From Terriglobia bacterium (lineage in GTDB: Bacteria > Acidobacteriota > UBA6911): DNA of 64,000 bases. The stretch covers positions 64,583 through 128,582 of the forward strand of contig CAWGRQ010000030.1 of assembly GCA_963824985.1 (NCBI GenBank), read 5' to 3'. Shown piece after piece: positions 1-64,000 of the stretch (positions within the stretch are counted from its first letter, which is position 1; every line of letters begins with the position of its first letter). The translations under genes and the position numbers were made by a program. A model generated the notes under the pieces. That model was not told the origin of the DNA. It saw only the letters and a list, made by a program, of their open reading frames with translations, and searched no databases.

Positions 1-1643
<1,643 letters not shown>

Positions 1644-9544: not shown

Positions 9545-9745
9545 GTAGCCGGGGGCGAGCCGCGCAGCGGCGCTGCCCCCGGCTATGGCAAGCACAGTGT
9601 CAGAGCCATGGCAGGGGCGACGGAAATCATTCACTTTTAGATGCTTTCCGTCGCCCCTGCCGGGGCTCTTGATCAAAATTCCCTGAACCCCGGGCTTCGC
9701 TTTGCTTGCCCGGGGCTATTGTCCCCGGCCCTTCCAGGGCTGGAA
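9545..9745. repeat. Cluster of GC-rich REP-like hairpins
   Basis: Three inverted repeats in one intergenic gap. The first is TAGCCGGGGGC/GCCCCCGGCTA (9546-9585). The second is a perfect 17-bp stem, GGCAGGGGCGACGGAAA/TTTCCGTCGCCCCTGCC (9610-9626 / 9645-9661). The third is CCCCGGGC/GCCCGGGG (9688-9715). The third unit and its 3' flank resemble 42885-42940. Confidence 0.7.
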
Positions 9746-13635: not shown

Positions 13636-13764
13636 TCTTCAGGATCGCTGCTCCTGGAAAGCGAATTGCTTTCTTTCTTACAGACATCGCCCGACGAGGC
13701 GACGCCTCATAAAATAGGACAGTGTCGCCGGCCATTGGCTTGTGTCAAAACGTCACCGGCAAGG

Positions 13765-14049
13765 GCATCTGTTTAGCCGATGCTGAACAGCAGAACGCAA
13801 AGACGCAAGGACGCAAAGAGATTCCTTTCGGTTCGCGGGCATGGGCGGCCTTCGGCCGCATCCTTGGGCGAGCCGCGGGAGAAAGCGCAATCCTCCTGAG
13901 TAGCCGCTGCCCGCGCTTTCTCCCGCGGCTCGCCCAAGGATGCGCCAGCGCGAAGCGCTGCGCCCACGCCCGTTGCTCAGTGTCGATCTTTGCGTCCTTG
14001 CGCCTTTGCGTTTTGCTTCATCATCCATTTGATTTGGCTAAACAATTAC
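13765..14049 (+). mobile_element. MITE copy 1 (full length, 285 bp) with 8-bp TSD CGGCAAGG
   Basis: The ends GCATCTGTTTAGCC ... GGCTAAACAATTAC are flanked by CGGCAAGG at 13757-13764 and 14050-14057. It has a nested palindromic interior. Five more copies are in the window. Confidence 0.85.
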
Positions 14050-14492
14050 CGGCAAGGACCCGGGCGTTTTTTATCTCTCCGACTTCGTTTTGGAAAGTGC
14101 TGTCGGACTCTTGCGGCAATCTGTCGATCGGTCATCTTGTCGACGGCTTCAATACCGATTATCCGTCCTCCAAGCGCCTCACTCTCAAGACGCTTTTCGA
14201 TTTCGACTTTTGCCTCGCCGGGGCCAAATATCAGTATGGACTCGGCATCGCGTATACACGATATTACTTGATCATAGTATTTATTGAGATGGCCGGCATA
14301 GCGCTGGTCTCGCTGATCCTCGGCCGAGTCTTCCTGCGCTGCACCAGAATACCGGACATGCTTCTCCATTTCCGATTCGATCAAGTTTGTCTCTTCACCG
14401 TTGTCAGTGACACTTACGATGACCGTCTTCCTGTGGTCAATCCAAATGCCCACCTCTTTTCTCATACGTACCTCCTCAGACATATCGTTCAC
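14046..14492 (-). CDS. Conserved hypothetical protein downstream of mgtA
   Basis: 148-aa ORF. VGIWIDHRKTVIVSV ... ILIFGPGEAKVEIEKRL looks like a real small globular protein, possibly an eRF1/host-attachment-like fold (weak memory-based guess). Its stop codon lies inside the MITE end. Confidence 0.6.
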   Translation of the reverse strand: MNDMSEEVRMRKEVGIWIDHRKTVIVSVTDNGEETNLIESEMEKHVRYSGAAQEDSAEDQRDQRYAGHLNKYYDQVISCIRDAESILIFGPGEAKVEIEKRLESEALGGRIIGIEAVDKMTDRQIAARVRQHFPKRSRRDKKRPGPCR

Positions 14493-17684: not shown

Positions 17685-17864
17685 GACGCACCTCTCTGAA
17701 TACTGTGTTCTCGGAGCAGGCCTGGGTGGCCGCCCCTTCTGACATCCGCCTCTCACCAGGTTGCGATTGAGAACCAGCGGCACATTTCTTATACCTTGGA
17801 GGTGATGCGCGTGTCAGGTCAGTATGGCTCACACGTGTGATCAAAATTGCTCACCCCATGAATG

Positions 17865-18029
17865 GTAATTGTTTAGCCAAATCAAATGGATGAAGAAGCA
17901 AAACGCAAAGACGCAAAGGCGCAGGGGCGCAAAGATCGACACTGAGCAACAGGCGTGGGCGCAGCGCTTCGCGCTGGCGCATCCTTGCGTCTTTGCGTTC
18001 TGCTGTTCAGCATCGGCTAAACAGATGCC
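17865..18029 (-). mobile_element. MITE copy 2 (165-bp internal-deletion derivative, inverted) with 8-bp TSD CATGAATG
   Basis: GTAATTGTTTAGCC ... GGCTAAACAGATGC is flanked by CATGAATG at 17857-17864 and 18030-18037. It ends 90 bp upstream of the RT start codon. Confidence 0.85.
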
Positions 18030-18119
18030 ATGAATGAAGCAGGCTCGGCAATCTGCTATCGCCGGCGGTCCTTCTCGCGTTACAATGCGTAGATCTCCTC
18101 TTCCCCGACGGAGGCCGCC

Positions 18120-19790
18120 ATGAAGACAACGCTGAAGGGACATTCCCTCGATTGGGCGCTCATCCACATTTGCCGATACTGCGATAGCGACCTGTTTCCG
18201 CGCATGTTTGAATTCAACGTCATCCGCTGGAACTGGAGCGAGGTCAAGGAACGGATGCTCGCGGTCAACATGGAAACATACGAGCCGCGGCCGCCTCAGA
18301 TCCGCTTTGCCCCCAAACTCACCGGCGCCCAGCGGATCGTACACCGGCTCGATCCGATCGATTCATTGATATACACGGCCATGGTGTATGAAATCCATGA
18401 AGCCATGGAGAAGACCCGCAAACCCGAATCGCCGGTCCCCGCCACGCTCCTGATCCACACCGATTCCGACGGCTCCTTTTTCCAAACGGCTCGAGATGCT
18501 TGGCAGCAGCACACCGCGCGAATCGAAAGGCTCGCCCGATCCTATCCGGACGGCCATGTTCTGATGGCGGATATCTTCGATTTTTTCGGGCAGATCCAGC
18601 CGCGGCGGCTGGCAGGGGTCCTTGCGGAAGTACCCGGGTGTAACGCAAAACTCGCCCGGAACCTCATACATTTCCTTTACGCATTGTGCCCGGCGTCAGG
18701 CCGCGGCATCCCGATCGGTCCCGCCGCAAGCACCGTCCTCTCCGAGGTCATCATGGAATCCATCGAACGCAGGATCGTGGCTTCCACGAGTGACTTCGCC
18801 CGCTGGGGAGATGATCTGCGCGTTTTCTTTTCCACACGCGAGGAGGCGCAAAAGGCGCTGGGTGAATGGAGTTCCTACCTGCACACGACCTATGAGATGA
18901 TTTTCGCCCTCGATAAGACGCGGGTGATCCCGGTGCCGGAGTTTATGGGGCGTCATTTCAGGGGGCTCCCGGAAGAGACTGTCGCGGCGGGTCCTGCAGA
19001 GGCTCGCTTGAGCCGGGCAGTCGGGGACGGCAGCGGCATAATTCCTCATCACTATGCGTGGGGGACCTCAGCGGTCCCGGAAACACGGCCGGCGAGCGTC
19101 TACCGGCTGTTGCAGTCGCTGCCTGAATTTGAAACGACCGCAGCGGTGTACCTGCATCACTTCCACAAGGCGCTGGCGGGAAGACCGCCCGATATGCTGA
19201 CCGTGAAGCGCATCATGCGCAAGGCCGCCGCCTACCGGATTCGTTCGATTCTTCCCGGGGTTCTCGAGCATTTCGACCGTCTGATGCCGGTGATTCGCGA
19301 AGCCGGGACCTACTTGAGAGCGGTACTGGATGATGAGGAAGTGAGCTCGCACGCGGTGCCCCTGCGCCGGATCTGGGAGAGCAGCCTGCAGGGCAGTTCC
19401 TACTTTCACGACTGGATGTGCCATGTAATGACCCATCCCGGCTTCAATCAAATCCGACTCCCGGAGGATTACAGTTCGGTGGTCGGGATCAGGAATCAGG
19501 CCTTAATCGCCCTGCGGCGGCACGATATCGATTGGGTGCATCGCCATGTTGCCCACATGGAAACCATGGATCCATGGGATCGGCATGCGGTTCTCCATTC
19601 ATGCGCCATGTTGCCCGAGGGGGAACGGGAGCGTGTGGCCGGAGCGGCGCTGGCTGCCGGGGACCTCGTGGAACTATCTCTCGCCCGGCATCTCCAATCG
19701 CTTTCGAGTCGAAAAACCAGTCCCGGCGGCGGCCGCTCCGACATCAAGGGTCCCGACAATTATCCCTCGTACGGCGACAAACCGGCCTAG
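18120..19790 (+). CDS. Stand-alone reverse transcriptase, UG/Abi (defence-associated RT)-like, with about 280-aa helical C-terminal extension
   Basis: 556 aa, ATG preceded by GGAGG (18110-18114). RT motifs occur in the canonical order. Motif 1-2 is FAPKLTGAQRIVHRLDPIDSLIYTAM. Motif A is LMADIFDFFGQI (D151 = nt 18570-18572). Motif B is GIPIGPAASTVLSEVIM. Motif C is FARWGDDLRVFF (DD = nt 18810-18815). Motif D is LDKTRV. I see no RNase H, maturase/endonuclease or integrase motifs. Confidence 0.85.
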   Translation: MKTTLKGHSLDWALIHICRYCDSDLFPRMFEFNVIRWNWSEVKERMLAVNMETYEPRPPQIRFAPKLTGAQRIVHRLDPIDSLIYTAMVYEIHEAMEKTRKPESPVPATLLIHTDSDGSFFQTARDAWQQHTARIERLARSYPDGHVLMADIFDFFGQIQPRRLAGVLAEVPGCNAKLARNLIHFLYALCPASGRGIPIGPAASTVLSEVIMESIERRIVASTSDFARWGDDLRVFFSTREEAQKALGEWSSYLHTTYEMIFALDKTRVIPVPEFMGRHFRGLPEETVAAGPAEARLSRAVGDGSGIIPHHYAWGTSAVPETRPASVYRLLQSLPEFETTAAVYLHHFHKALAGRPPDMLTVKRIMRKAAAYRIRSILPGVLEHFDRLMPVIREAGTYLRAVLDDEEVSSHAVPLRRIWESSLQGSSYFHDWMCHVMTHPGFNQIRLPEDYSSVVGIRNQALIALRRHDIDWVHRHVAHMETMDPWDRHAVLHSCAMLPEGERERVAGAALAAGDLVELSLARHLQSLSSRKTSPGGGRSDIKGPDNYPSYGDKPA

Positions 19791-19965: not shown

Positions 19966-22794
19966 ATGAAGCACTCAACACTTCTCATCAAGATCCAAAT
20001 CGTTCTGATGCTGGCGCTCGCTCTTTCGATTACGGCATGCGGGCAAGGTGAACCTGTCGCATCGAAATTCCCCACGCTCAAATTCGAAACCTTCAAACTG
20101 GCAAACGGGCTCCAGGTGATTCTCAGCGCGGATCACCGACTGCCTCTGGTTGCGGTGGACCTGTGGTATCACGTGGGGCCGGCCAACGAGCGGCCGGGGC
20201 GCACCGGGTTTGCGCACCTCTTTGAACACATGATGTTCCAGGGTTCGAAGCATGCGGGAGATAAGCCGTTCCAGGTCCTGGAGACCGCGGGGGCCACGGA
20301 AATCAACGGCACGACCGATTTCGACCGTACCAATTATTTCGAGACCATGCCCGCCGGCCAACTGGAACTGGCGCTCTGGCTTGAGAGCGACCGCATGGGC
20401 TGGCTCCTGGACAAGCTGGATCAGGGCAAGCTTGCCAATCAGATCGATGTCGTGCGCAATGAACGGCGCCAGGGCGAGAACTCCCCATATTCGCTGGTCG
20501 AGGAAGAACTGTTCCATCAGCTTTTCCCGAAAACGCATCCCTATTACGCCAGCGTGATCGGGTCGCACGCGGACATAGAATCGGCGGAACTGAACGATGT
20601 GCGCGACTTTTTCACACAATATTACACTCCCAACAACGCCAGCCTGGCGATCGTCGGTGATTACGACCCCGGCACGATCAGGGGCCTGGTTGAAAAATAC
20701 TTCGGCCCCATTCCCGCCGGGCCGACAGTGCCCAGGATCGACGCCGTGACACCGCCGATTACCCAGGAGCGGCGCGTCACGGTAACCGACAAGGTACAAT
20801 TACCGCGCGTATACATGGCCTGGATCACCGCGCCCATTTACAAGCCGGGGGACGCGGAAGCCGATCTTTTGGCGCGCATTCTGGGCGGTGGAAAATCGAG
20901 TCGCCTTTATAAAAGGCTGGTATACGAAAAACAGATTGCCCAGGATGTGAGCGCTTCCCAATACTCGCTCATTCTTGGTTCGGTATTTCAGATCACGGCA
21001 ACCGCGCGGCCGGGGGTCAAGCCGGAAGATCTGGAGAAGGCGGTCGCAGAGGAATTGAGCGCTATCCAGAAGGACGGTCCCGGCGCGGCGGAAATGGAAC
21101 GCGCGCGCAACACCATCCAGACCGGCATCATCCGTGGCCTGCAGACGCTTGGCGGATTCGGGGGCGTGGCTGATGTGCTCAATCAGTACAACCACTACCT
21201 CGGCGAGCCAGGCTATCTGTCGAAGGACCTGGAACGGTACGAAAAAGCGACTCCGGCGGCGGTGCAGAAGGTGGCCATGACACTGACGCGCGATTCGCGA
21301 GTCGTGGTGTATGGAGTCCCCGGGGAAAAGGTGATCCAGGACGTGCCGAAGAAGCCCGAGCCCAAGATTACGGCGCAGAATCTCCCGGGAGGTCCCACCG
21401 GCGATGAATGGCGCAATACTCCCCCGGCACCGGGCAAGACCGGCACGATAAGCCTGCCGGTGCCCGTAGAGTTCACACTCCCCAACGGCCTGACCGTCCT
21501 TCTGATGGAACAGCACAACCTGCCCGTCTTCACCGCCGAACTGGCGGTGCTGCGCGGCAGCGACACCAATCCGATCTCCCGGCCGGGCCTGGCTTCGTTT
21601 ACCGCTGCCATGCTGACCGAGGGAACCCATAAGCGATCGTCCCCGCAACTGGCGGAAGAAATCGCGCAGATCGGCGCCTCCCTGACTACCAATTCCACTA
21701 TGGACGCCAGCTTCATTGTCGGTGGCGCTCTGACCGGCAATGCCGACCGGTTGTTCGAGTTGCTTTCCGACGTCGCCTTGAATCCAGCCTTTCCTGAGGA
21801 GGAGATCGCCCGGGTTCGCCAGCGCCGGCTCACTGCGCTCGTGCAGCAGGCCGACAATCCCAGCAGCCTGGCCAGCAGGATCGCATATCGGGAGGTCTAC
21901 GGGGAAAAGAGCCCGTATGGTTACCTGGAAAGCGGCACCAGGGAGTCCACCGAGGCCACCACCCGTGACGACATGACGCGGTTCTATCAGGATGGCTTTG
22001 GGCCGAAAAACTCCGCGCTGGTGGTCGCCGGCGACATTACCCAGGAGCAGCTGAAAACGCTGGCCGGGAAATACTTCGGCGCATGGGCGGTGGGAGCGCT
22101 CACCTCGCAGGCGCCTGACGTCGCCGCCGCCCAAACACGCCGGATCGTGATCGCCGACAAGCCGCGCGCGCCGCAGAGCGTGCTCATCATCGGCCAGGTG
22201 GGTCTGGCGCGCAGCCATCCGGATTACGTCCCGGTCAGCATCATGAACGATATCCTTGGCGGACTGTTCTCCAGCCGCATCAATCTCAACCTGCGCGAGG
22301 CCCACGGTTATACCTATGGAGCCTCCTCCATGTTCCTGTTCCGCCGCGGACCCGGACCATTCCTGGTTTTTACCATGGTCCGCACGGATGTCACCGCTGC
22401 ATCCGTCAAGGAGATCTTTTCCGAACTGGAGAAAATCCGCAATTCCCAGGTCGAGCCTAAAGAGCTGGCCATGGCCAAGGAAAGCAGGGTCCGCGGCCTT
22501 ACCGGCATCTTCGAGACCATGGAGCAGACCGCCGGCACCCTGGCGAATCTTTTCATTTACAACCTGCCGCTCGACTATTACCGGCAGCTGCCGCAGAAGA
22601 TCGAGGGGACCGAGGCCGCCGCCGTGCAGCGGGTGGCACGGGAGAACCTGGCGCCGGAGAGAATGGTCATTGTAGCCGTCGGCGATCGCGCGCGGATCGA
22701 GCCGGAGTTGAAGAAGCTCGGCTTGGGTCCGATTATTGCCCTGGATGCCGAGGGGAAGCCGCTGGCCCAACCCCGAACGTCGCCGGGGAAATAA
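19966..22794 (+). CDS. M16 (pitrilysin/insulinase) family zinc peptidase, tandem double-module type
   Basis: The HxxEH zinc motif occurs in GFAHLFEHMMFQGS, and a second inactive-type M16 module fills the C-terminal half. The ORF-track start is a TTG at 19951. I prefer ATG 19966 (MKHSTLL, signal peptide), which has GGAGG 6 nt upstream. Confidence 0.92.
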   Translation: MKHSTLLIKIQIVLMLALALSITACGQGEPVASKFPTLKFETFKLANGLQVILSADHRLPLVAVDLWYHVGPANERPGRTGFAHLFEHMMFQGSKHAGDKPFQVLETAGATEINGTTDFDRTNYFETMPAGQLELALWLESDRMGWLLDKLDQGKLANQIDVVRNERRQGENSPYSLVEEELFHQLFPKTHPYYASVIGSHADIESAELNDVRDFFTQYYTPNNASLAIVGDYDPGTIRGLVEKYFGPIPAGPTVPRIDAVTPPITQERRVTVTDKVQLPRVYMAWITAPIYKPGDAEADLLARILGGGKSSRLYKRLVYEKQIAQDVSASQYSLILGSVFQITATARPGVKPEDLEKAVAEELSAIQKDGPGAAEMERARNTIQTGIIRGLQTLGGFGGVADVLNQYNHYLGEPGYLSKDLERYEKATPAAVQKVAMTLTRDSRVVVYGVPGEKVIQDVPKKPEPKITAQNLPGGPTGDEWRNTPPAPGKTGTISLPVPVEFTLPNGLTVLLMEQHNLPVFTAELAVLRGSDTNPISRPGLASFTAAMLTEGTHKRSSPQLAEEIAQIGASLTTNSTMDASFIVGGALTGNADRLFELLSDVALNPAFPEEEIARVRQRRLTALVQQADNPSSLASRIAYREVYGEKSPYGYLESGTRESTEATTRDDMTRFYQDGFGPKNSALVVAGDITQEQLKTLAGKYFGAWAVGALTSQAPDVAAAQTRRIVIADKPRAPQSVLIIGQVGLARSHPDYVPVSIMNDILGGLFSSRINLNLREAHGYTYGASSMFLFRRGPGPFLVFTMVRTDVTAASVKEIFSELEKIRNSQVEPKELAMAKESRVRGLTGIFETMEQTAGTLANLFIYNLPLDYYRQLPQKIEGTEAAAVQRVARENLAPERMVIVAVGDRARIEPELKKLGLGPIIALDAEGKPLAQPRTSPGK

Positions 22795-22879
22795 TGGCGG
22801 GTGGCGTTTCCGGTGCGCGTCCGATCCGGGCTACGGCAGGAACAATCAAGTATATGCGGCGCTTCCATGGGCCGATAGG

Positions 22880-23908
22880 ATGGGAATGAAATCCCTCAGA
22901 TTTTGTATATTCGCGCTTCTGGTGTTCTACGGGTCCGGGAGTTCCAGCCTGAGCCGGCAGCAGCCGGCTCAGCCCTTGCATGCCGACCTCGAGGAGGCGG
23001 CGCGCCTGGTCAGCCTCACTCCTAAGTCCGGCCGGCAATACAATTATATCGTGACCGCTGGAATTCGCTTCCTTCTGTTCTGGGTGTCCCGGGATGATGT
23101 GGGTCACGGGTATATCCGGATGGGAACGCTTCCCGAGGATCCGGAGACGGAAATGGTCGAGCTGTTGATGGGATCCGATCCGGCAAAGGCGCCGCTCGGA
23201 GTCAATCGCTGGGGAGCGGCTGCCGAAGTCTGGCGCCGCAAGGACCATTCCGGCGCGTTTTTCGGCTTCATGAAATCCTCGAAAGGCGATTCCGTATCGG
23301 CCGCTCGGGACGAACTGTCGCGCGAGCAGGAGGTCCAGAAGTACCCCTTTGAGGGCATCATCATCCGCACCCACGATGGCCGGGCGGTGTCAACCTCGGT
23401 GCCCATCAATGCGGCCACCGATTTCACCCTCAATCAACTGCCGATGGCCAGGCAAATGGTCATCGAAAACCTCAAGGCTGCCGCACGAGCGCCGCGCGTC
23501 ACGGATGGCCGGACGCTGGCAGACTGTGCAAACGGCATGGGCTTCCTCTTTACGCTGCGCGATTTGATCGATGCTCATCTGGCGGGACAGAAGGCGCCGA
23601 TGACCCGGTGTTATGTGTATGCCGCACGACGCTACACCATCTCCATCCGCAGTTCCGAGCCGGTAGTCGAGTTGAAGGTAGCCCTGAAGATGCGCGGCGC
23701 CACCCGGAAAGTGGAACGAACCTATCGCAGCCTGAGGCGGGCCGATTTCCGCGTGGTAAACACCGTGACCGGCCTGCCGACTGATTTCCAGGCGGTGTTC
23801 GGGGAGTCGGGGGAACTTCGCGGCATTCCGATTCAGTTCGAACACCAGCCGAATTGGTGGTTTCGGGTTACCATCAACCTTCATCCGGAGCTGCCGCTGA
23901 AAAAGTGA
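22880..23908 (+). CDS. Hypothetical secreted protein
   Basis: Signal peptide MGMKSLRFCIFALLVFYGSG at the internal ATG 22880 (or 22886). The 5' extension of the ORF-track ORF to 22736 overlaps the M16 gene end and is not protein-like. No family recognised. Confidence 0.65.
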   Translation: MGMKSLRFCIFALLVFYGSGSSSLSRQQPAQPLHADLEEAARLVSLTPKSGRQYNYIVTAGIRFLLFWVSRDDVGHGYIRMGTLPEDPETEMVELLMGSDPAKAPLGVNRWGAAAEVWRRKDHSGAFFGFMKSSKGDSVSAARDELSREQEVQKYPFEGIIIRTHDGRAVSTSVPINAATDFTLNQLPMARQMVIENLKAAARAPRVTDGRTLADCANGMGFLFTLRDLIDAHLAGQKAPMTRCYVYAARRYTISIRSSEPVVELKVALKMRGATRKVERTYRSLRRADFRVVNTVTGLPTDFQAVFGESGELRGIPIQFEHQPNWWFRVTINLHPELPLKK

Positions 23909-23910
23909 CC

Positions 23911-23998
23911 GCATCTGTTTAGCCGATGCTAAACAGCAGAACGCAAAGACGCAAGGACGCAAAGAGATTCCTTTCGGTTCGCGGGCATGGGCGGCCTT
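23911..23998 (+). mobile_element. MITE copy 3 (truncated, left 88 bp only)
   Basis: GCATCTGTTTAGCCGATGCTAAACAGCAGAACGCAAAGACGCAAGGACGCAAAGAGATTCCTTTCGGTTCGCGGGCATGGGCGGCCTT is co-linear with the left arm of copy 1, then similarity stops. It starts 2 nt after the stop codon at 23906-23908. Confidence 0.8.
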
Positions 23999-38168: not shown

Positions 38169-38953
38169 TTAAGGAATATTGATCACTCCCCGGAGGTACT
38201 CCACGGCTCTTCCGGCGATAGCTACGCGGTCGCCTCGCAACTCGCACTCAAGCTCGCCGGCACGGAGCGACAACTGTCTGGCGGTGAGCTTGAGCCTCCC
38301 CAGGCGCCCTGCCCAGTAGGGCACGAGCGTGCAATGCGCCGAGCCCGTGACCGGGTCTTCGGGAATGCCCACACGTGGAGCAAAAAAACGGGATACGAAG
38401 TCAACCTCACCGCCCGGCGCGGATGCAATCACGGCAAGCGCATCCAGCTGCGCGATACGATCGAAATTCGGTCGCAATTCCCGGATCTCATCTTCGGAGC
38501 CGAACACCGCGAGAATATCTTCGCGCCAGGTAGGCCTCCCGCGGCCTCGAACCCAGAGCGGATGTGAGCGCCTCGGAAACTTCGATCCGCACACCGGGAC
38601 GCGCGGGGAAATCCAGGCTCAGGAGATCTCCCGCGCGGCTCACGGCCAGGACACCGCTGCGCGTGCTGAAGCTGACCTGTTTCAGATCGGGATAATGATA
38701 GGCAAACAGGACGTGTCCGGTCGCCAGTGTGGCATGACCGCACAGATCGATTTCGACGGCCGGAGTGAACCATCGCAGTGGGCGCCATCTCCGGTCCCGG
38801 GATGACGAAGGCCGTCTCGGCAAGATTGTTTTCTGCGGCGATGCTCTGGAGAACCTCGTCCGGGAGACAACGGTCGAGAGTGACAACCGCCGCCGGATTT
38901 CCCCCGAACAACCGGCTCGTAAAGGCATCAATCTGGTAAATGGGAAGTTTCAT
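38169..38953 (-). pseudogene. PhzF-family isomerase, reading frame broken twice
   Basis: Three overlapping ORFs in three frames cover one PhzF protein. The first is MKLPIYQIDAFTSRLFGGNPAAVV ... NNLAETAFV (38953 frame). The second is RWFTPAVEIDLCGHATLATGHVLF (38931 frame). The third is SRFFAPRVGIPEDPVTGSAHCTLVPYW (38594 frame). Confidence 0.8.
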
Positions 38954-43219: not shown

Positions 43220-44743
43220 GTGCTCAGAAAGGAATGGAAAATGGAGGAAGGCCGCGATGTTCAAGGAGGAAATAGCAAACAGATTGCAGGACTCCCAGTG
43301 ATTCGACCGGAAGTAGCGGGGATCGATTTGGGCAGTGAACAACACTGGGTTTGCGCTCCGACGCTGGACCGATCCGCTCGGGAAGTAGCCACTTTCGGAG
43401 CTACAACTCCAGAGCTGATCCGGATGGCTCAGTGGCTTAAAGAGCGTAACATCGAATCGATAGCAATGGAGAGCACGGGGGTCTACTGGATTGCTCCACA
43501 CGAGGTCCTGGAGGCGGCGGGTTTCGAAATACTGTTAGTCGATACCCGGCAATTGGCACGCGTACCTGGGCGCGACAAAAAAACGGACGCCAAAGACTGC
43601 GAGTGGATTCAACGGCTCCATAGCTGCGGACTGCTCAGGGGTTCATTTCGCCCTGCGGAGGCCATATGCATGTTGCGGACCCTGGTGCGAGACAAGGCCA
43701 TCCTGGTGGCCGATTCATCCGACTGGCTGCGCAGGATGCAAAAGAGCCTGGACCAGATGAATGTGCGGGTGCACCGGGCGGTTTCCGATATTGATGGGGT
43801 GACCGGCATGAAGATTCTACGAGCCATCGCAGCGGGAGAGCGCGACCCCATGAAACTGGCCCAGCTGCGTGACTGGCGCTGCCGCAAGAGCGAAGAGGAA
43901 ATCGCCGACCAGTTGACCGGGCACTGGCGCGAGGACCACCTGTTCAGTCTGCGGCAGTCATTGCAAATGTACGACGCTTTCCAGCAGCGCGTTGCCGATT
44001 ACGACCGGGAGATTTTACGAAAGCTCGCCGAGCTGCAGCGGCAGGAGTGCCGACAACAGCCTCCTCCGACCGTGAAAAATCCACATAAAGCAAGAGCGAT
44101 CAAAAAACGGGGCGAAGAGCCCATGCGAGAGGCGCTGTATCGCATGAGCGGAGCGGACCTAACCAGCATCGACGCCATCGGTGTAGAAACCGTCCTGGTG
44201 GTCGTGAGCGAATACGGTCCCACTTTAAGCGATTTCCCGACGGAGAAACACTTTGTCTCGCACGCCACCCTGGCACCCCATAGACCCATCAGCGGAGGCA
44301 AACCCGTCAAAAAGAAAAGGCGGAACACGGCGAGTACGCGCGTTGCCGCTGCCCTACGGATGGCGGCACTGTCACTGCGTAACAGCGCAACGGCGTTGGG
44401 AGCTTACTATCGAAAGATCGCGCGAAGTCGTGGAGGAGACGTTGCCGTATTTGCGAGCGCAAGAAAGTTGGCCACTCTGATTTACCGCCTGCTGCGGTGG
44501 GGCCAGCCATACGTCGATGAAGGTGTAGAAGCATTTGAAAAGCGCTACCGCGAGAGCCGGATCAACTCCCTGAAGGCCAGAGCCAAGGAACTCGGATATC
44601 AATTAGTCGCTGGTCCTAATGCTTCGGCCCCCGAGCCAGCCACGGGTTTAGTCACAGGCAAGCGAAGCGCAGCCCGGGGTTTAGACGCAAACAGATCGGC
44701 AGCCCCGGCGGGGCGACAGAACATTCTCGCCTTATCTTCGTGA
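43220..44743 (+). CDS. IS110-family DEDD transposase/recombinase
   Basis: AGIDLGSEQHWVC, IAMESTGVYW and LLVDTRQLARVPGRDKKTDAKDCEWIQRL form the RuvC-like DEDD domain. The C-terminal Tnp domain has SIDAIGVETVLVVVSEYG ... LAPHRPISGGK ... ALRMAALS. The likely real start is ATG 43241. The last roughly 45 codons look like read-through into flanking DNA. Confidence 0.9.
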   Translation: MLRKEWKMEEGRDVQGGNSKQIAGLPVIRPEVAGIDLGSEQHWVCAPTLDRSAREVATFGATTPELIRMAQWLKERNIESIAMESTGVYWIAPHEVLEAAGFEILLVDTRQLARVPGRDKKTDAKDCEWIQRLHSCGLLRGSFRPAEAICMLRTLVRDKAILVADSSDWLRRMQKSLDQMNVRVHRAVSDIDGVTGMKILRAIAAGERDPMKLAQLRDWRCRKSEEEIADQLTGHWREDHLFSLRQSLQMYDAFQQRVADYDREILRKLAELQRQECRQQPPPTVKNPHKARAIKKRGEEPMREALYRMSGADLTSIDAIGVETVLVVVSEYGPTLSDFPTEKHFVSHATLAPHRPISGGKPVKKKRRNTASTRVAAALRMAALSLRNSATALGAYYRKIARSRGGDVAVFASARKLATLIYRLLRWGQPYVDEGVEAFEKRYRESRINSLKARAKELGYQLVAGPNASAPEPATGLVTGKRSAARGLDANRSAAPAGRQNILALSS

Positions 44744-50400: not shown

Positions 50401-53400
50401 TCTGGACTTGAACCATCGTTCCAGTGCGAATTCACCCTGGCTCTTGATGCCAGCCCAATCCAGGAAAGCATTCTTAAAGGCAGTTCCCCAATCGATATGA
50501 TAATCCTGAAAGATAGGCTCAAAGACATATTCGTCCCATTTGTGCTTAAGTAAGCTTCTAACGAATTTCTGTATCTCCGGGACAACTATCAAACTCACGA
50601 ACAGGCTGGCTGTTGTCGGTTCAAGGGTCGCAACGGTCGGGGCAAACGATTGTTCGGTCGGAAGTATGACCGCTTCGAAAGTCATTGCCTGCCCGGGGGG
50701 GATAAGGGGCAGTGCAAATACAGGCAGCTTTCCCGCGTCATTGTTAATGTCCCAGACCAGGATATCCTGATAGCGAAGGCTGGACAGGGTGAATCCGCTG
50801 GAGGAACTCAGATCGAGAAATGCCAGTTCGCTATTTACATTGCCGTCATTGGCGACTGTAATGCTATAGGTCGCCGATCGACCCAGGCGAACATACTGCC
50901 GCCCTGTGATATCAACCCTCAACTGAATTTCAGATCCAGGAACGATGGAAAAGGGTACGGTTGATGCAGCTGAACTTCCATCCGGATTGCGAACCGCCAG
51001 TGTTCGTGATCCGGGAGTGATTCCATTCAGATCAAACTCGGCCGATAGTTCTCTGCCGTTTGCGGAACCTGCCACCGACTGGGCTGCGAGGGTACTACCG
51101 TCCGCCGAAACCAAATAGACCGCCGCCGAAAAGCTGAGTCCGGCCCCACGGACCAAGATCGTCACTACTCCGGTATTCCCGCCGCGAGCTGGGAGAAATA
51201 CTGATAATAGTAGGATCCGCTGCCGGGATGGCGTCAATGGACTTGAGATCTGCCTTGATTTTATGGTCACGCGGTATGTCGTGGTCGGGAAACCACGCCG
51301 AGTCGGTCAGACTGACATAGTAGGTGCCCGCGGCCGGCGATTGGATTTGCAGATTGGTCGTATCACCTGAGGCCGCCGTCCAGAGCGGGGATGCGCCGAG
51401 CATGCCGTAGGAAACCTCGAGGCGGCTCCAGAGCCCCAGGGTCTCGGCGGCTACGGACAACATCTGCTGACCGGCGGGGACGTGGATTTCATACCAGGCG
51501 CTCCCATAACAGCGCAGGATTGACCCGATCGTCCACTCCCCAAGCTTTAACTCCGGCAAGGATGTAAGTATGGAAAGCTTTCCGGAGCCCGAACCAGTGA
51601 CGCGAATCGTGCAAGGGCCGGGCGCCGGCGATTGCATCTGGAGTGCGAAGTCCTGGCTGCCGATATCGCTCTTCAGAGTCTTCCCGTCCCGCAGGACCTC
51701 GAGCGTTCCCCACCAGGAGCTGTCTTTCTGCAGCAGCACGAAAAAGTTTGACGCCCCGTCGGGTATAACCGTTTCGACCAATACCGGTTGTGACTGGCTT
51801 ACATTAATGTTGACGGAAGAGCCCGGCGTGATGCCTTGTCCGCCCGTCTGGCTGACGGTATAGGTCTGATCGGCGATCTGAAGGGCTCCGCTGCGGGAAG
51901 CCGAGCCTGAATGGGCGGCCACGGAATAATTCACCGTCCCGTTCCCGCTGCCGCTGCCGCCGGCCGTAATGGTTATCCAGTCGGCGTTGCTCGATGCTGT
52001 CCATGAACAGCCCGTTTGCGCGGTGACCGCGACACTCCCGGCGCCGCCGCTGGCGCTGAACAGTTGCCCTGAGGAGGAAAGATAGTAAACACAAACGGGC
52101 TTTCCGGCCTGTGTCACCGTAAAAGTTTTCTCGGCGATCGTCATGGTGCCGGAGCGCGAAGTCGCGGCGTCGTTGGCTGCGACCGTATAACTCACGGTTC
52201 CATTGCCCGTGCCACCGGCGCCCGACGTGATCGTGATCCACGCCGCGTTTGAGGTTGCCGTCCAGGCGCAATTGCTTCCCGCCGTGACTGCGACGGAGCC
52301 TGTGCCGCCCGAAGCATCGATGGAACGGCTCGAAGGAGAGATCGAGTAGGTGCAAGCAGTGCCTTCCTGGGTCACGGTAAAAGTCTTGCCGCCGATGGTC
52401 AGGTGGCCGCTGCGCGAGCCGCTGGCGGAATTGGCGGAGACGCTGAAGGCCACGCTCCCGTTTCCGGTACCGCTGGCCCCCGAAGTGATCGTGAGCCAAC
52501 CCGAATCGCTCGTGGCGGTCCATGCACAGTCGCTTGGTGCCGCCGTCACGGACACGCTGCCGGATCCGCCTGAGACCGGGAATGTCTGGCTCACCGGAAA
52601 CAGTGTGTAGGAGCAGGTGGCGTCCCCGCAGCTGAAGACTAGGGTATAGTCTCCGGTATTGAATAAATCGCTGTCGCGGACCAGGATCGTATACGATCCT
52701 GAGGCAGGGAGAGTGACCTGCCCGCTTTGCCCGTCGGGAGCCGTGGCCGCCAGCAGACTGCCTGAGGGATCGTAGAGCTCGGCGACCGTGTCTACGAGGT
52801 AGTAGCCGCTGCTGGATGAGATAACCACCTTGTTGCCGGCAGACCCTGGAAAGATGTAGGAATTCTGTTGGCCGGGGCTGCCAAGCGTGCCGTTCTTGGT
52901 CTCACCGCAGGATATCACCGTTCCGCATGTACCGTCTACGAAGGCCAGGCTGAGACCATAGTCCCCAATGTTGGATAAGTCGCTGTCGCGGACCACGATC
53001 GTGTAGGACCCGGCCGTCGGGATGGTGAGAATCCCGCTCTTCCCGTCGGCGGCGCTGGCCCCGACCAGGTTGCCGGAGGGATCATAGAGCTCCGCAACGG
53101 TGTCTACGAGGTAGGTGGTGCTGGCCGTGGATAGGATTACCTTGCGACCGGAGACGGCCGGGAAGGTATAGGAATTCTGTTGCCCCGCGCTGGAAAGACT
53201 GCCCGTTTTGGTCTCGAAACAGGAAATGGCGGCAGTACCGCATTTGCCGTTAACGAATACCAGGCTGAGACCATAGTCCCCAATGCTGGAAAAGTCATTA
53301 TCGCGGACCACAATCGTGTATTTTCCGACAACCGGGAGGGTGAGCACCGTGCTTTTTCCGTCTGCCGTGCTGGCCCCGAGCAGATTGCCGGAGGGATCGT

Positions 53401-54619
53401 AGAGTTCGGCGATGGTGTCCACAAGGTAGTTGTTGCTGGCCGTAGATACGACAACCTTGTCACCGGCAACCGTCCAGAAGGTGTAGGAATTCTGTTGTCC
53501 CGGGCTGGTTAGACTGCCGGTCCGGGTTTCGCCGCAGGAGATGGTGGCGGTGCCGCATGTGCCGTTGACAAAGATCAGGCTGAGTCCATAGTCCCCGATG
53601 CTGGAAAAGTCACTGTCGCGGACCACGATCGTGTAAGACCCGGCAACTGAGAGGGGGAGGGCCCCGCTTTTTCCGTCGATTGCGCTGGCTCCCAGCGAGG
53701 TTGCCGGAGGGGTCGTAGAGTTCGGCGACGGTGTCCACGAGGTAGTTGTTGCTGGCGGTGGATATGACGACCTTGTCGCCAGCAACTGCCGGGAAGGTAT
53801 AGGAATTCTGCTGCCCGGGGTTAGTAATATCGTCGGTCCTGGTTCCACCACAGGAGATGGTGGTAGTGCCACACTTGCCGTTAACAAAGACCAGGCTGAA
53901 GCCGTAGTCCCCGATGCTGGAAAGGTCACTGTCACGGACCACAATCGTGTACGAGCCGGCAGCCGGGAGGGCAAGCACCCCGCTTTTTCCGTCGACCGTA
54001 CTGGCCCCGAGCAGGTTGCCGGAGGGATCGTAGAGCTCGGCGACGGTGTCTACAAGGTAGTTGTTGCTGGCCGTAGAAATGAGGACCTTGTCGCCGGCCA
54101 CCGCCGGAAAGTTGTAGGAATTCTGCTGTCCGGCGCTGTTGATACTGCCGGCTTTGGTTTCGCCGCAGGATATGGCGGCGGAAGCGCTTGCCGTTGGCAA
54201 AGACCAGGCTGAGGCCGTAGTCCCCGTTGCTGGACAAGTCACTGTCGCTGACCAGGATTGTATAGACCCGGCAGCCGGGAGGGCGAGAACCCCGCTTTTC
54301 CCGTCGGCGGCGCTCGCCCGAGCAGGTTGCCGGAGGGATCGTAGAGTTCGGCGATGGTGTCTAGATGGTAGCTGTTGCTGGCCGAGGATATAATGACCTT
54401 GTCGCCGGCCACCGCCGGGAAGGTGTAAGAGTCTTTCTGGCCCACGGATGTGATGGATCCCGTTACAGTCTGACCGCAGGATATTGTTCCCGCGGCGGGT
54501 GACGGCGCCGGTTCCATCTCATGCAGAGGCGTTGTCAAGGCGGTTGATTCGAGAGCCGAGGGAACCGCGATCGATGTGCCCGGAATCAGGACGGCCGCAA
54601 GCCATGCACGCATTACCAT
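47469..54619 (-). pseudogene. Giant cell-surface protein gene(s) split over at least 7 frame changes (signal peptide, 6 PPC repeats, BACON-like repeats, IPT-like, FN3-like, C-terminal beta-rich region)
   Basis: A chain of overlapping minus-strand ORFs carries it: 54239..54787, 53932..54237, 53610..54242, 51095..53974, 50239..51270, 49638..50297, 49276..49989 and 47469..49553. Protein-like sequence continues from one frame into the next. The likely start is MVMRAWLAAVLIPGTSIAVPSA (ATG 54619). Confidence 0.7.
52634..54487 (-). repeat. Tandem array of six ~315-bp (105-aa) pre-peptidase C-terminal (PPC)-type domain repeats
   Basis: The repeat unit is [91 protein letters not shown]. An EcoRI site (GAATTC) recurs in five units at 52860, 53172, 53487, 53803 and 54118, giving spacings of 312, 315, 316 and 315 bp. 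Confidence 0.85.
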
Positions 54620-55528
54620 TCTTTTGATAAATGCGCCCCGAGGATTTTCAGGAAAGCGGAGGATTCCGTGTGACGACCGCGTCTGTTTGCCTGAATCCGG
54701 AAGTCGCCCGGTTGAACCGCTTGTTTTCGGGACGTAGGAATGCGGAAGCATAGGCTCTCCTTGCGTGCGGAGGGATGCGGCCAGCAAGATCGGTATCTGT
54801 AGAAGAAAAAATGAGGAATTGCCGGAAGCAAAGTTTACTGATTCGATCTGGAATGAACGCGACGCGGCAGGCTTTCGCCTCTCAATGCTTCCGCATCGAG
54901 CGCGCGCGATCCACTGGAAGTGCTTTGGTTACCCGCCGGTGGTGCCGTGCATTTAGGTGATGGAATTAGATCGGCGTCGTTGGCTGCCACGGCTGCGCAG
55001 ACTTTTGGAGGCTTTCCATATTGATCTGCGGCATCAGCCGCGATGCCGGGCGTCCCTTTGCCACTGAGTGCCACTGACCCGTTCCATCGATGAAGGCTCA
55101 ATTCACCCTCACTGTGTCAGGAATGAGTAACCGGCCGAAATTCAGGAATCTGATTCTTGGTGCGCGTTTTCCTCAGACCAGCAAAATAGCACAGGTTGCG
55201 GCGGATTGGACAGGAATTCGCGGAGTTTGCGCCAGCCCTGAAAATCGTCATCTGACCTCACGCAACATGCTCTTGAGCGGTATGTCGGCACGCCTGCGGC
55301 GCACCCGATCCTGCAACTCCGCCTGGACCAATTCGAACGAGGCAGGCGTTGCCGAACGTTTGCTTGCATCCGGCCCCGGGAAAATGTCTTTGAACGATAA
55401 AACAGACCTCAAAATCAAGCGCAAGCCTGATTCTCGGGTCCCCTGCAACGTTCATACTATGGAATTAATAATATTTCGGCTGATCCAGCCTCGCACGAAA
55501 CCCAGCCATAATGCCCACGTCCGATTTT

Positions 55529-55823
55529 GCATCTGTTTAGCCGATGCTGAACAGCAGAACGCAAAGACGCAAGGATGCAAAGAGATTCCTTTCGGTTCGC
55601 GAGCATGGGCGGCCTTCGGCCGCATCCTTGGGCGAGCCGCGGGAGAAAGCGCAATCCTCCTGAGTAGCCGCTCTGCCCGCGCTTTCTCCCGCGGCTCGCC
55701 CAAGGATGCGCCAGCGCGAAGCGCTGCGCCCACGCCTGTTGCTCAGTGTCGATCTTTGCGCCCCTGCGCCTTTGCGTCTTTGCGTTTTGCTTCTTCATCC
55801 ATTTGATTTGGCTAAACAATTAC
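55529..55823 (+). mobile_element. MITE copy 5 (full length, 295 bp) with 8-bp TSD CCGATTTT
   Basis: GCATCTGTTTAGCC ... GGCTAAACAATTAC is flanked by CCGATTTT at 55521-55528 and 55824-55831. Nearly identical to copy 1. Confidence 0.88.
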
Positions 55824-56019
55824 CCGATTTTAAGTCCGCTGTAATGTTCATCTCTTCCCATTCAATAGCCATCGGCCGATCCGTTCCCAACCCCCAACTC
55901 CACACATTAGAATCCTCTATTTATTATATTCAAAGAATTTAGCGTATTTTCCCAGATGCCTTTTTTGCCCGAGAGCCGGCTGCGAATTGCTTCCGGAAGT
56001 GCTATAGTCAGGCAATTAC

Positions 56020-59138: not shown

Positions 59139-59238
59139 TGAAAATCTTTTGGCTTTGCGACTTTGCGTCTTGGCGTCCTTGCGTTGATTATTTTAACGCA
59201 ATGACGCCAAGACGCGAGGGCGCAAAGAGATATTTTCG
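59139..59238. repeat. ~100-bp palindromic mini-element related to the MITE arms
   Basis: GGCTTTGCGACTTTGCGTCTTGGCGTCCTTGCGTTGA, loop TTATTT, then TAACGCAATGACGCCAAGACGCGAGGGCGCAAAGAG. It has the same GCGTCTTxGCGTCCTTGCG word structure as the MITE sub-terminal arms. Confidence 0.6.
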
Positions 59239-59525
59239 GAGCAGAAACTGTCTTGTGGGTTGGCAACGCCAAAGTGGGAATTTGGGATGTCCCCTTTTTG
59301 CGGGGGGCGATTCGGTCTAAAATGAACAGGCGGAGCACGAATGGGATCTCCAGACCGGGCCAGGAATGCTGGCACAGTACTTGCAACTCAGATGCTGGAG
59401 AACCGCGACCGGCGCTCTCCGATGCCAGGCGGAGGCTTATTTTCGCCGCCGGCGAGAGACTTGCCTTTCAAATGCAGATCGGCATTCTCTTCACCAATCC
59501 CTGAACCCCTGAAACTGGAGGTCCT

Positions 59526-61911: not shown

Positions 61912-61928
61912 CGGCACAGACAAATAGT

Positions 61929-62074
61929 GCATCTGTTTAGCCGATGCTGAACAGCAGAACGCAAAGACGCAAGGACGCAAAGAGATTCCTTTCGGTTCGC
62001 GGGCATCGGCGCCCTTGCGCCTTTGCGTCTCTGCGTTTTGCTTCTTCATCCATTTGATTTGGCTAAACAATAAC
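61929..62074 (+). mobile_element. MITE copy 6 (146-bp internal-deletion derivative) with near-perfect 8-bp TSD
   Basis: GCATCTGTTTAGCC ... GGCTAAACAATAAC is flanked by CAAATAGT (61921-61928) and CAAAAAGT (62075-62082). It begins 17 nt after the upstream stop codon. Confidence 0.85.
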
Positions 62075-62205
62075 CAAAAAGTATTTCCCCGCAGAATTGG
62101 CAGTCTTGTCCTGTCCCGCATTCTGAAGTTGGAAAGCATGACCATCAAGCAAAAAGGGGCAAGCCCGAAGGCTTGCCCCTTTTTCATTGCAGGTAAGTCA
62201 GCGGA

Positions 62206-64000
62206 TCAGAAGTCGTAGCGGATGGCGAACTGCATCCGCCGCGGATCGTTGCGCTGACTCGAAATCCGACCCCAGGTGGAGGTTTGGGTCATGCTCATGC
62301 TGGGATTGCCCAAAACCACGCTGTTGGTCATGTTGAACGTTTCCCATCGGATCTGGATGGCATGCCCTTCTTTGTAGGGCATCTTGAATGATTTGGCCAG
62401 CGCGGAATCGATGTTCCAATTTCCCCAGGTTCGGATGTCGTTGCGCAATCCACCCTCGCCGGGGAAACTCTGCCGGTAGGCAGCAATCGAGGCGATGGCG
62501 TCCGCCTGAGTGGCGAACCCGCTGACGTTCAGGCTGCCGGTTGACAACGTTCCGTTCTTGTTGATGACCGGAGTTCGGGAACGGCAATCCGGTAGGCACG
62601 GCCGGGTTGCTGAGCTGCCAGTTGGTGGGCCACACGGAACCCGTGCTGGTGCTGGTCGTGGTGGCGGACGATTGCCTGTATGTCCCCGAAACCTGCCAGC
62701 CGCCGACGATGGCATCCAGGAACTTGTTCATCTGGCTGCCGAACCTCATGCCGCGGCCGAAGGGAAGCATGTACACGCCGTAGGCGTTAACCGAGTGCAG
62801 CGTGTCGTAATCCGAAACCGCGCGCCTTTCGCCCGGATTCCAGGAATTGGTGATGACTCCCCCGCCCCACGAGCCGGAGTTTTCGTTGCCCGAGGCGAGA
62901 TCGATGGACTTGCTGAGCGTATAGTTGAAATCGAACTGCAGGTTATTGGTGAACCGCTTGCGCACGGTCAGCTGGGCGGCGTGGTAATTGCCGCTCCCGA
63001 TGGAGCTTCTTGCGGACAGCGCGCCGAACTGGTTGGTGAACATCGCGTCCGGGCCCAGAACGGAACAATTGAGAGTACCGGACCCTGCCGTCAGTACGGA
63101 AGGTGGTGCCGGTGGTGGTGCAGGTGAAATCCATGGCCTGCAGGACGTTGGTGAAGTCCCCCTTATTGCTGCTGCGGACGTAGAAATTGGCGATATTCTG
63201 CGTGGCGGTAAAACCGCCGCCCGCCGCACCCGCCCAGAGGTTTTCAAAGTAGGCAATCGGGAGCGATCCGCGTGTAGGATGTGGCGCGGCTTCCATCCTG
63301 CAGGTCGATGTAGGTGGCCATCTTCTGCATAGCCTCGAAGTAGGTCATGCCGGACGCCGGGTCCTTGAGGTTGGTGGGCATGGCCACGTCGCGATTGATC
63401 AGCGAATGCCGCGAGAGGCGGCCGACGTACGAGGCCTGAACGAAGAGGCCCTTGCCGAAATCGCGGCCCCAGCTGAAATTCATGTTCATCGTGTAGGGCG
63501 CTTTCAGCTGATCATCGATGCTGTTGGTGATCGCGAAGGCGTCCTGGGGATACGTTGCCGGAAATCCGGCCGGCGGCGCCGCCGGGAGGTAGGCAGTCGG
63601 AATCTGGTAGAAATCCGTAAACCGGGGAGCATTGAATGCATCCAGGGTGTTGAGCGGATTGCTGAGCGACGTCGAGAGACCGAACATCGTGGAGGCGAAA
63701 TTGGCCGCCAGCGGCTGCCCGATCAGGTCGTAGTACAGCCCGAATCCCGCCCGAATGGAAGTCTTCCCGGATTCGCCGAACAGAAACTTGGCGAACCCGC
63801 TGTTCCCGCTGGGGGAATACGCCAGGCCGAGCCGCGGAGACCAGTTTTTGAAATCCGGGTAGAGCTGCCTTCCGCCCGGCATGCTGGACCAGAATGAAGG
63901 AAATGTCACCGGCTCCCGCCTGTGAGAGACCCGCTTCGGCCAGAGCGCCGCGCTGCCCGAGCCAATCGGCGAGCGGAATGTTGGGGGAAGTCTGCTGGCC
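62206..64000 (-). pseudogene. TonB-dependent receptor (C-terminal beta-barrel part; 5' end beyond window), frame broken at least three times
   Basis: It ends with the receptor-typical ...NDPRRMQFAIRYDF* (stop at 62206). The barrel-like sequence (FDFNYTLSKSIDLASG, SIRAGFGLYYD, NFSWGRDFGKGLFVQASYVGR) is spread over ORFs 63244..63909, 62943..63296, 62198..63256 and 62206..62715 in different frames. Confidence 0.75.

Follow-up and report, generated by a model that had tools for sequence, protein, structure and literature searches.

Bacterial MITEs include the Correia elements of Neisseria, RUP of Streptococcus pneumoniae, and ERIC/IRU of enterobacteria. The element that we describe here resembles them in being short, non-coding, and intergenic, in having TIRs and a target duplication of fixed length, in forming a hairpin, in occurring in many copies with length variants, and in lacking a transposase of its own; in all features tested, it is a textbook MITE (for the general definition, see PMC11602168), of a family that appears to be undescribed. 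It differs from these examples in that its duplication is 8 bp rather than TA, its hairpin, with a perfect core of 31 bp, is far longer, and an inverted array of subterminal 8-bp units lies in each arm. In addition, it comes from an uncultured member of the Acidobacteriota and has no sequence similarity in the libraries searched.

Duplications of 8 bp are also made by insertion sequences (ISs) of the IS256, ISL3, and IS1595 families, which are further candidates for the source of the MITE transposase. In the IS66 family, 8-bp direct repeats accompany inverted repeats of 20-30 bp that start with GTAAGCG (PMC11946415), and the IS6/IS26 family combines an 8-bp duplication with the TIR consensus GGTTCTGTTGCAAA, the conserved bases of which recur in other families (PMC6807381). 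With IS6/IS26, the MITE shares the length of the duplication, G1, and a TCTGTT/ACTGTT core at positions 4-9 that includes the conserved G7, but it lacks G2 and G10, and 7-8 of the 14 positions match GGTTCTGTTGCAAA. Movement of the IS26 type proceeds via cointegrates, by which a MITE would not obviously spread. With IS66, it has in common the 8-bp duplication and a right terminus that begins with GTAA (GTAATTG), and the left terminus of most metagenome copies begins with GCAA. However, the right end agrees with GTAAGCG at 4 of 7 bases, and at that one end only; the left end reads GCATCTG or GCAACTG; and IS66-family elements from the same kind of samples share no terminal sequence with the MITE. 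Since 8-bp duplications are made and the right end starts with GTAA, IS66 is our single best guess for the family of the MITE transposase, albeit a tentative one.

The family was analyzed in a stretch of 64,000 nucleotides (hereafter, the window). According to its genes and to the top matches of an M16 peptidase (64-70% identical to Terriglobia/Acidobacteriota MAGs; 70% for the best match in GTDB), the host of the window is a Terriglobia-like member of the Acidobacteriota without a close reference genome; the nearest relative of its transketolase is 78% identical, and relatives this distant offer no orthologous intergenic region for alignment. BLASTN searches with copies 1 and 5, as well as an nhmmer profile, recovered six MITE copies in the 64-kb window and no others (i.e., about one copy per 10 kb), at the positions at which an earlier note on this DNA had placed them. 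Copies 1 (13765-14049, forward strand, 285 bp) and 5 (55529-55823, forward strand, 295 bp) are full length. Copy 2 (17865-18028, reverse strand) has a length of 164 bp and not of 165 bp, as reported earlier. Copy 6 (61929-62074, forward strand) has been reduced to 146 bp by an internal deletion, and copy 3 (23911-23998, forward strand) consists of the left 88 bp only, its right part having been lost. Copy 4 (39026 to about 39305, reverse strand) is an older copy, with 81-84% identity and a decayed left terminus (CCGAACGGTTAAGCC). The unit ranges from 146 to 295 bp and is non-coding.

The element ends in imperfect TIRs of 14 bp. In copy 1, the left TIR (13765-13778, forward strand) reads GCATCTGTTTAGCC and the right one (14036-14049, forward strand) reads GGCTAAACAATTAC, the reverse complement of which, GTAATTGTTTAGCC, matches the left TIR at 11 of 14 positions; most metagenome copies have GCAACTGTTTAGCC at the left end, which raises the match to 12 of 14. 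The consensus TIR of the family is GYAWYTGTTTAGCC, with GGCTAAACARTWRC as its counterpart at the opposite end. The 9-mer TGTTTAGCC occurs 10 times in the window, against 0.11 occurrences expected, and is located only at element ends. Copy 1 is bordered on both sides by CGGCAAGG (13757-13764 and 14050-14057), and joining its flanks around a single 8-mer gives the reconstructed junction GTCACCGGCAAGGACCCGGG. Perfect 8-bp duplications likewise flank copy 2 (CATGAATG/CATGAATG; 17857-18036 with the duplications) and copy 5 (CCGATTTT/CCGATTTT; 55521-55831), whereas the flanks of copy 6 (CAAATAGT/CAAAAAGT; 61921-62082) match at 7 of 8 positions. Collectively, the window holds three perfect duplications and one 7/8 duplication that differ in sequence from copy to copy, with a chance probability of ~1.5e-5 for each perfect 8-mer match; a comparison of the 8-mers flanking copy 4 revealed no recognizable duplication. 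Both the TIRs and the copy-specific duplications had been proposed from a first inspection of the sequence, and both were borne out.

We consider it very probable that the element is a genuine MITE, i.e., a non-autonomous DNA transposon that is moved in trans and inserts through 8-bp staggered target cuts. A transposase encoded elsewhere in the genome, presumably a DDE enzyme, would recognize the 14-bp termini (consensus GYAWYTGTTTAGCC) and probably also the inverted 8-bp subterminal arrays (ACGCAAAG-type, 3-5 units per arm), which may serve as auxiliary binding sites. Insertion via 8-bp staggered cuts would then leave the copy-specific 8-bp direct repeats. Shorter derivatives have arisen by deletion between short direct repeats, and these have turned up at new sites.

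Outside the window, public data contain few members of the family. With an exact 29-mer taken from the left end, 0 matches were obtained in 185,579 GTDB species genomes, and the MITE itself gave 0 matches in the PLSDB plasmids (near and distant modes) and 0 in two scans of the IMG/VR viral contigs. The nhmmer profile found no match in 80 loci (1.4 Mb) from related genomes. No Rfam family matched any part of the window at the gathering score, and a search of copy 5 against Rfam with an E-value threshold returned only chance miRNA-type hairpin matches far below threshold. A literature search with the terminal sequence retrieved primers only. That Rfam, the plasmids, the viral contigs, and the GTDB genomes (for the exact 29-mer) contained no match fits the earlier description of the family as undescribed.

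A scan of JGI metagenome contigs in which 23 left-end bases were specified yielded ten contigs that carry this end, and an ORF-based search added one more (L112). At least nine metagenome loci beyond the window have unrelated flanks. The genes there are ordinary cellular ones, such as those for an OmpA-family protein, a Ser/Thr kinase, a methyltransferase, and a PQQ-like propeller. Two of the metagenome copies are full length, namely L085 and L082 (95% and 89% identical to copy 5, respectively), and L082 is bracketed by the perfect 8-bp duplication TAATTTAT. No recognizable duplication was seen at L085, L086, and L112, in which both ends are present. Since metagenome contigs are often chimeric at repeats (e.g., L102 and L106, two copies of an IS discussed below, have the same left flank and different right flanks), we do not weigh these negatives heavily; the lack of duplications in L085, L086, L112, and copy 4 could reflect chimeric assembly or age.

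Since the termini and the inverted octamer arrays fit no family consensus compared, we also considered that the MITE could be the partner of an uncatalogued transposase lineage, with its hairpin or octamer arrays in addition acting as a preferred landing pad for other mobile elements. Nested ISs were observed in 2 of ~11 independent MITE loci (an IS66-family element at MITE position 40/41 and an IS91-family element at position 65), and the IS66-family insertion lies beside sequence resembling its own IS end. We regard this combined reading as rather unlikely.

Comparison of the shorter copies shows how they are related to the full-length unit. Relative to copy 5, copy 2 is missing exactly 131 bp between two direct repeats of 9 bp, CAAGGATGC (55570-55578 and 55701-55709 in copy 5), and the shared parts of the two are 100% identical. 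The internal deletion of copy 6 lies at a CCTT microhomology, L083 and L088 are without the inner palindrome, and L086 and L090 have a common TCGC|CCAAGG deletion junction within different flanks. The identical deletion variant at two different sites shows that the shortened unit moved as such, and the near-identity of some copies shows that the family has been recently active. One could argue that a full-length insertion sequence decayed independently at each site, leaving the copies as remnants deleted in place, as internal deletions between short direct repeats do happen in the family and copy 3 is a one-ended fragment. However, copies 1 and 5, L085, and L082 have a common non-coding interior of ~290 bp without transposase-derived sequence, and the L086/L090 variant occurs at more than one site; we consider decay in place quite improbable.

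An alignment of 12 copies revealed the layout of the MITE: a 14-bp TIR, a spacer of ~15 nt, an array of 8-bp units, a core palindrome that carries two small side hairpins, an inverted array, and then a spacer and the second TIR. In copy 1, the left array (13794-13820, forward strand) comprises three 8-bp units, ACGCAAAG/ACGCAAGG, and the right array (13988-14016, forward strand) is built from the 8-bp units CTTTGCGT/CCTTGCGC, inverted with respect to the left array. Unit number differs among copies by exact 8-bp steps. The inner palindrome, for which a minimum of 27 bp had been given, measures 31 bp and is perfect in copy 1 (arms at 13858-13888 and 13913-13943, forward strand) as well as in copy 5 (55622-55652/55679-55709, forward strand). 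Over ~265 nt, the arms of the whole unit are ~73% complementary (BLASTN).

In line with the earlier proposal that the unit can fold into a single long hairpin, the computed fold is one long hairpin of ~106 predicted pairs, with energies of -103.9 kcal/mol as DNA and -169.3 kcal/mol as RNA. Its z-score was -12.4 for DNA and RNA alike, and 0 of 200 shuffles folded equally well. Among five full-length copies, compensatory changes were found in two stem pairs, which hints weakly that the palindrome is maintained. We anticipate that so long a hairpin may affect transcripts that read through the MITE. A protein-coding reading of the unit was considered and rejected: copies 1 and 5 differ by indels of 8 nt and 2 nt, so the reading frame does not appear to be conserved; a search of 5.8 billion proteins with the internal ORF found only 3, weakly related, sequences; and no Pfam match or transposase-derived sequence was found in the interior. 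The internal ORFs had already been judged not credible from the sequence, and three spurious ORF calls in the window are made by the MITE.

All six copies are intergenic and lie between ORFs with Pfam-supported identities. The neighbors of copy 1 are a transketolase and, in convergent orientation, a P-type ATPase; copy 2 lies upstream of a gene for a reverse transcriptase; copy 4 is flanked by a PhzF-like fragment and by a sortilin/BNR protein; and copy 6 has a TPR/PD40 protein on one side and an outer-membrane barrel on the other. Copy 3 begins 3 nt past the stop codon of the ORF at 22736-23908, and copy 5 lies in a lower-GC stretch with ORFs of unknown kind. More specifically with regard to neighboring genes, two copies are situated between convergent genes, one provides the stop codon of the neighboring ORF, and one precedes a DRT8-type defence reverse transcriptase by 92 nt.

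Intergenic, highly structured palindromes are also typical of REP/REPIN sequences, and REPs measure 20-40 bp (PMC3733652). The MITE could be pictured as a REP/REPIN-like host palindrome that is spread by a Y1 (RAYT/IS200-type) transposase or by recombination and that has a role in termination or RNA stability. The very stable hairpin (z = -12.4), the intergenic location of every copy (two of them between convergent genes), and the presence in the same window of a TIR-less palindrome made of the same 8-bp words (at 59153-59240) and of other word-based palindromes (at 1777-1837 and 9602-9669) are all compatible with this picture. Against it, the unit is 146-295 bp long and 8-bp duplications flank four of the five two-ended copies in the window, copy 5 and its immediate surroundings showed no terminator-like site, and no Rfam family matched. 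To our knowledge, REP/REPIN and HUH-mobilised elements make no fixed-length target duplications, and the window ORFs that were scanned included no Y1 transposase. Transposition rather than a REP-type origin, as the earlier note had argued, is further supported by the unrelated metagenome loci, the perfect duplication of L082, and the L086/L090 variant in two different flanks. We consider a REP-like origin a little less probable still than decay in place.

If the element is a MITE, as we favor, an autonomous element with the same termini might be expected, and we searched for one. The earlier note had stated that no partner transposase is present in the window and that its IS110 element is irrelevant; indeed, the sole transposase found there is of the IS110 family (43220-44743). 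No autonomous element with the MITE termini was found in the window, the GTDB genomes (exact 29-mer), plasmids, or viral contigs, and in the metagenome contigs the MITE was seen either by itself or with another IS inserted into it. One such case is formed by L084 and L087, which represent the same locus: here, an element with an IS91-family Y2 transposase (PF04986, PF14319) splits the MITE at position 65. This element was rejected as the partner because the junction sits inside the MITE. IS91-type elements, besides, are not known to make TIRs or 8-bp duplications.

The other case, L089, was examined as a candidate autonomous master. In this contig, the first 40-41 nt of the MITE are followed directly by a tnpA-like ORF, an IS66 TnpB gene (PF05717 at 2.9e-27; NF033819 at 2.8e-26), and the beginning of another, third ORF. 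Relatives fetched via the TnpB protein proved to be IS66-family elements of about 4 kb with the gene order tnpA, tnpB, a DruA/DUF4338-like ORF (PF14236, 1.9e-30), and a DDE_Tnp_IS66 transposase (1.4e-44), some of which carry an extra 102-aa ORF. On this basis, one could propose that the MITE is mobilised by the IS66 clade (tnpA-tnpB-DruA-like-tnpC) that is fused to its end in L089. IS66 elements make 8-bp duplications (PMC11946415), and the IS terminus GTGTCCTTGCGG resembles the octamer context GCGTCCTTGCGC of the MITE. The boundaries of the IS were mapped from ten sister-IS copies (L102-L111) together with L091, L094, L095, and L099, that is, from 14 loci with different flanks, one of which (L104) is flanked by an 8-bp duplication that matches at 7 of 8 positions. 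Homology starts at GT[G/C]TCCTTGCGG[C/T]AAGCATGCGTGA and ends at CCGCAAGGA[C/G]AC. Because it begins exactly at GT[G/C]TCCTTGCGG in the 14 loci, the MITE sequence in L089 is flanking DNA, and the IS terminus abuts MITE position 40/41 as a nested IS66-family insertion.

Further observations speak against this clade as the source of mobility. Its ends (GTGTCCTTGCGG/GTCTCCTTGCGG) differ from the MITE terminus, BLASTN of the MITE against the ends of L089-type ISs found no similarity, and the MITE duplications border the TGTTTAGCC ends and not the octamers. Short 'CTGTT' motifs that precede the IS in L094 and L095 were considered as common outer termini and rejected, as they are missing in L091, L099, and all of L102-L111. 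Mobilisation of the MITE by the L089 clade is thus largely refuted, and we consider it the least probable of the biological alternatives. An assembly artefact is excluded, since the MITE was recovered from several independent samples.

The mobile elements of the Acidobacteriota, a dominant but poorly cultured phylum of soil and sediment, have barely been catalogued. At about one copy per 10 kb, a recently active MITE such as this one will break up assemblies and give rise to spurious ORF calls, and it can alter the expression of neighboring genes. Its consensus offers a handle for transposase discovery and for strain typing in metagenomes. The family is therefore useful for annotation, while presenting no conceptual surprise.

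Two minor observations can be added. The reconstructed pre-insertion site of copy 1, which lies between convergent genes, consists of an A-run, a stem, and a T-run. That this site was terminator-like is only a suggestion; as a bidirectional terminator, the site was rejected, since its fold was no better than that of shuffles (z = -0.02). In addition, the TIR-less palindrome at 59153-59240 is composed of four CTTTGCGN units, a loop, and four NCGCAAAG units, followed by AGAGATATTTTCGG, and it looks like an 'inside-out' relative of the left arm of the MITE; the palindromes at 1777-1837 and 9602-9669 are likewise word-based.

Among the metagenome contigs, copies of the MITE are themselves interrupted by two different insertion sequences (ISs), one of the IS66 family at MITE position 40/41 (locus L089, ~1009-1052, minus strand) and one of the IS91 family at position 65 (L084, 2247-2319, and L087, 317-389, which represent the same locus). 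The IS66-type insertion in L089 lies 8 nt away from the MITE sequence GCAAGGACGC, which is similar to the IS's own right end, CCGCAAGGACAC. This may reflect a target preference or may have arisen by chance.

Relatives of the nested IS66-family element, located at metagenome loci L091-L111, constitute a clade with 4-5 ORFs per element (e.g., L091, 399-3765, and L102, 1724-5576). In 20 of 20 loci, a DruA/DUF4338-like ORF (PF14236, 1.9e-30) is positioned between tnpB and the DDE tnpC. The termini of the clade begin with GTGTCC/GTCTCC, and the P0026-type copies (L102-L111) carry the canonical GTAAGC from position 12. Our literature search found no mention of DUF4338 and IS66 together.

Some ORFs in the window adjoin MITE copies. 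MITE copy 2 ends 92 nt before the start codon of a 556-aa reverse transcriptase of the DRT8 type (18120-19790, plus strand), which matches the defence-associated Drt8 model of PADLOC at 3.4e-77 and Pfam RVT_1 at just 8e-7. In some DRT systems, the region upstream of the start codon harbours a non-coding RNA. The final 4 nt of MITE copy 1 hold the stop codon of a 148-aa ORF (14046-14492, minus strand) for which family searches gave no match; if this ORF is a real gene, its C-terminal end would have been replaced by the insertion of copy 1. A PhzF-like ORF covering only positions 1-49 of the 281-position profile (38429-38953, minus strand) adjoins the old MITE copy 4, and an outer-membrane barrel (OMP_b-brl_4; 62198-63909, minus strand) seems to be divided between two ORFs that overlap but are read in different frames. 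Both may be gene fragments.

The 8-bp words of the MITE arms recur, in inside-out order, in a palindrome at 59153-59240, which is laid out as four copies of CTTTGCGN, a loop, four copies of NCGCAAAG, and AGAGATATTTTCGG, and has neither the TGTTTAGCC termini nor a duplication. Intergenic palindromes built from tandem short words were also observed at 1777-1837 and 9602-9669. Words of the ACACGGAT/ACGGATGA type occur in the former, and the same word is present again adjoining the MITE in metagenome locus L085 (~2795-2830); the lineage may thereby carry a second family of repeats.

The IS110-family transposase of the window (43220-44743, plus strand; DEDD_Tnp_IS110, 2.1e-21; Transposase_20, 7e-11) is unrelated to the MITE. 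In addition, tandem repeats of ~313 bp (~6 units, 75-79% identity) span 52646-54484, mostly within a large BACON/RHS-repeat ORF (51095-53974, minus strand) and running past it to ~54484.
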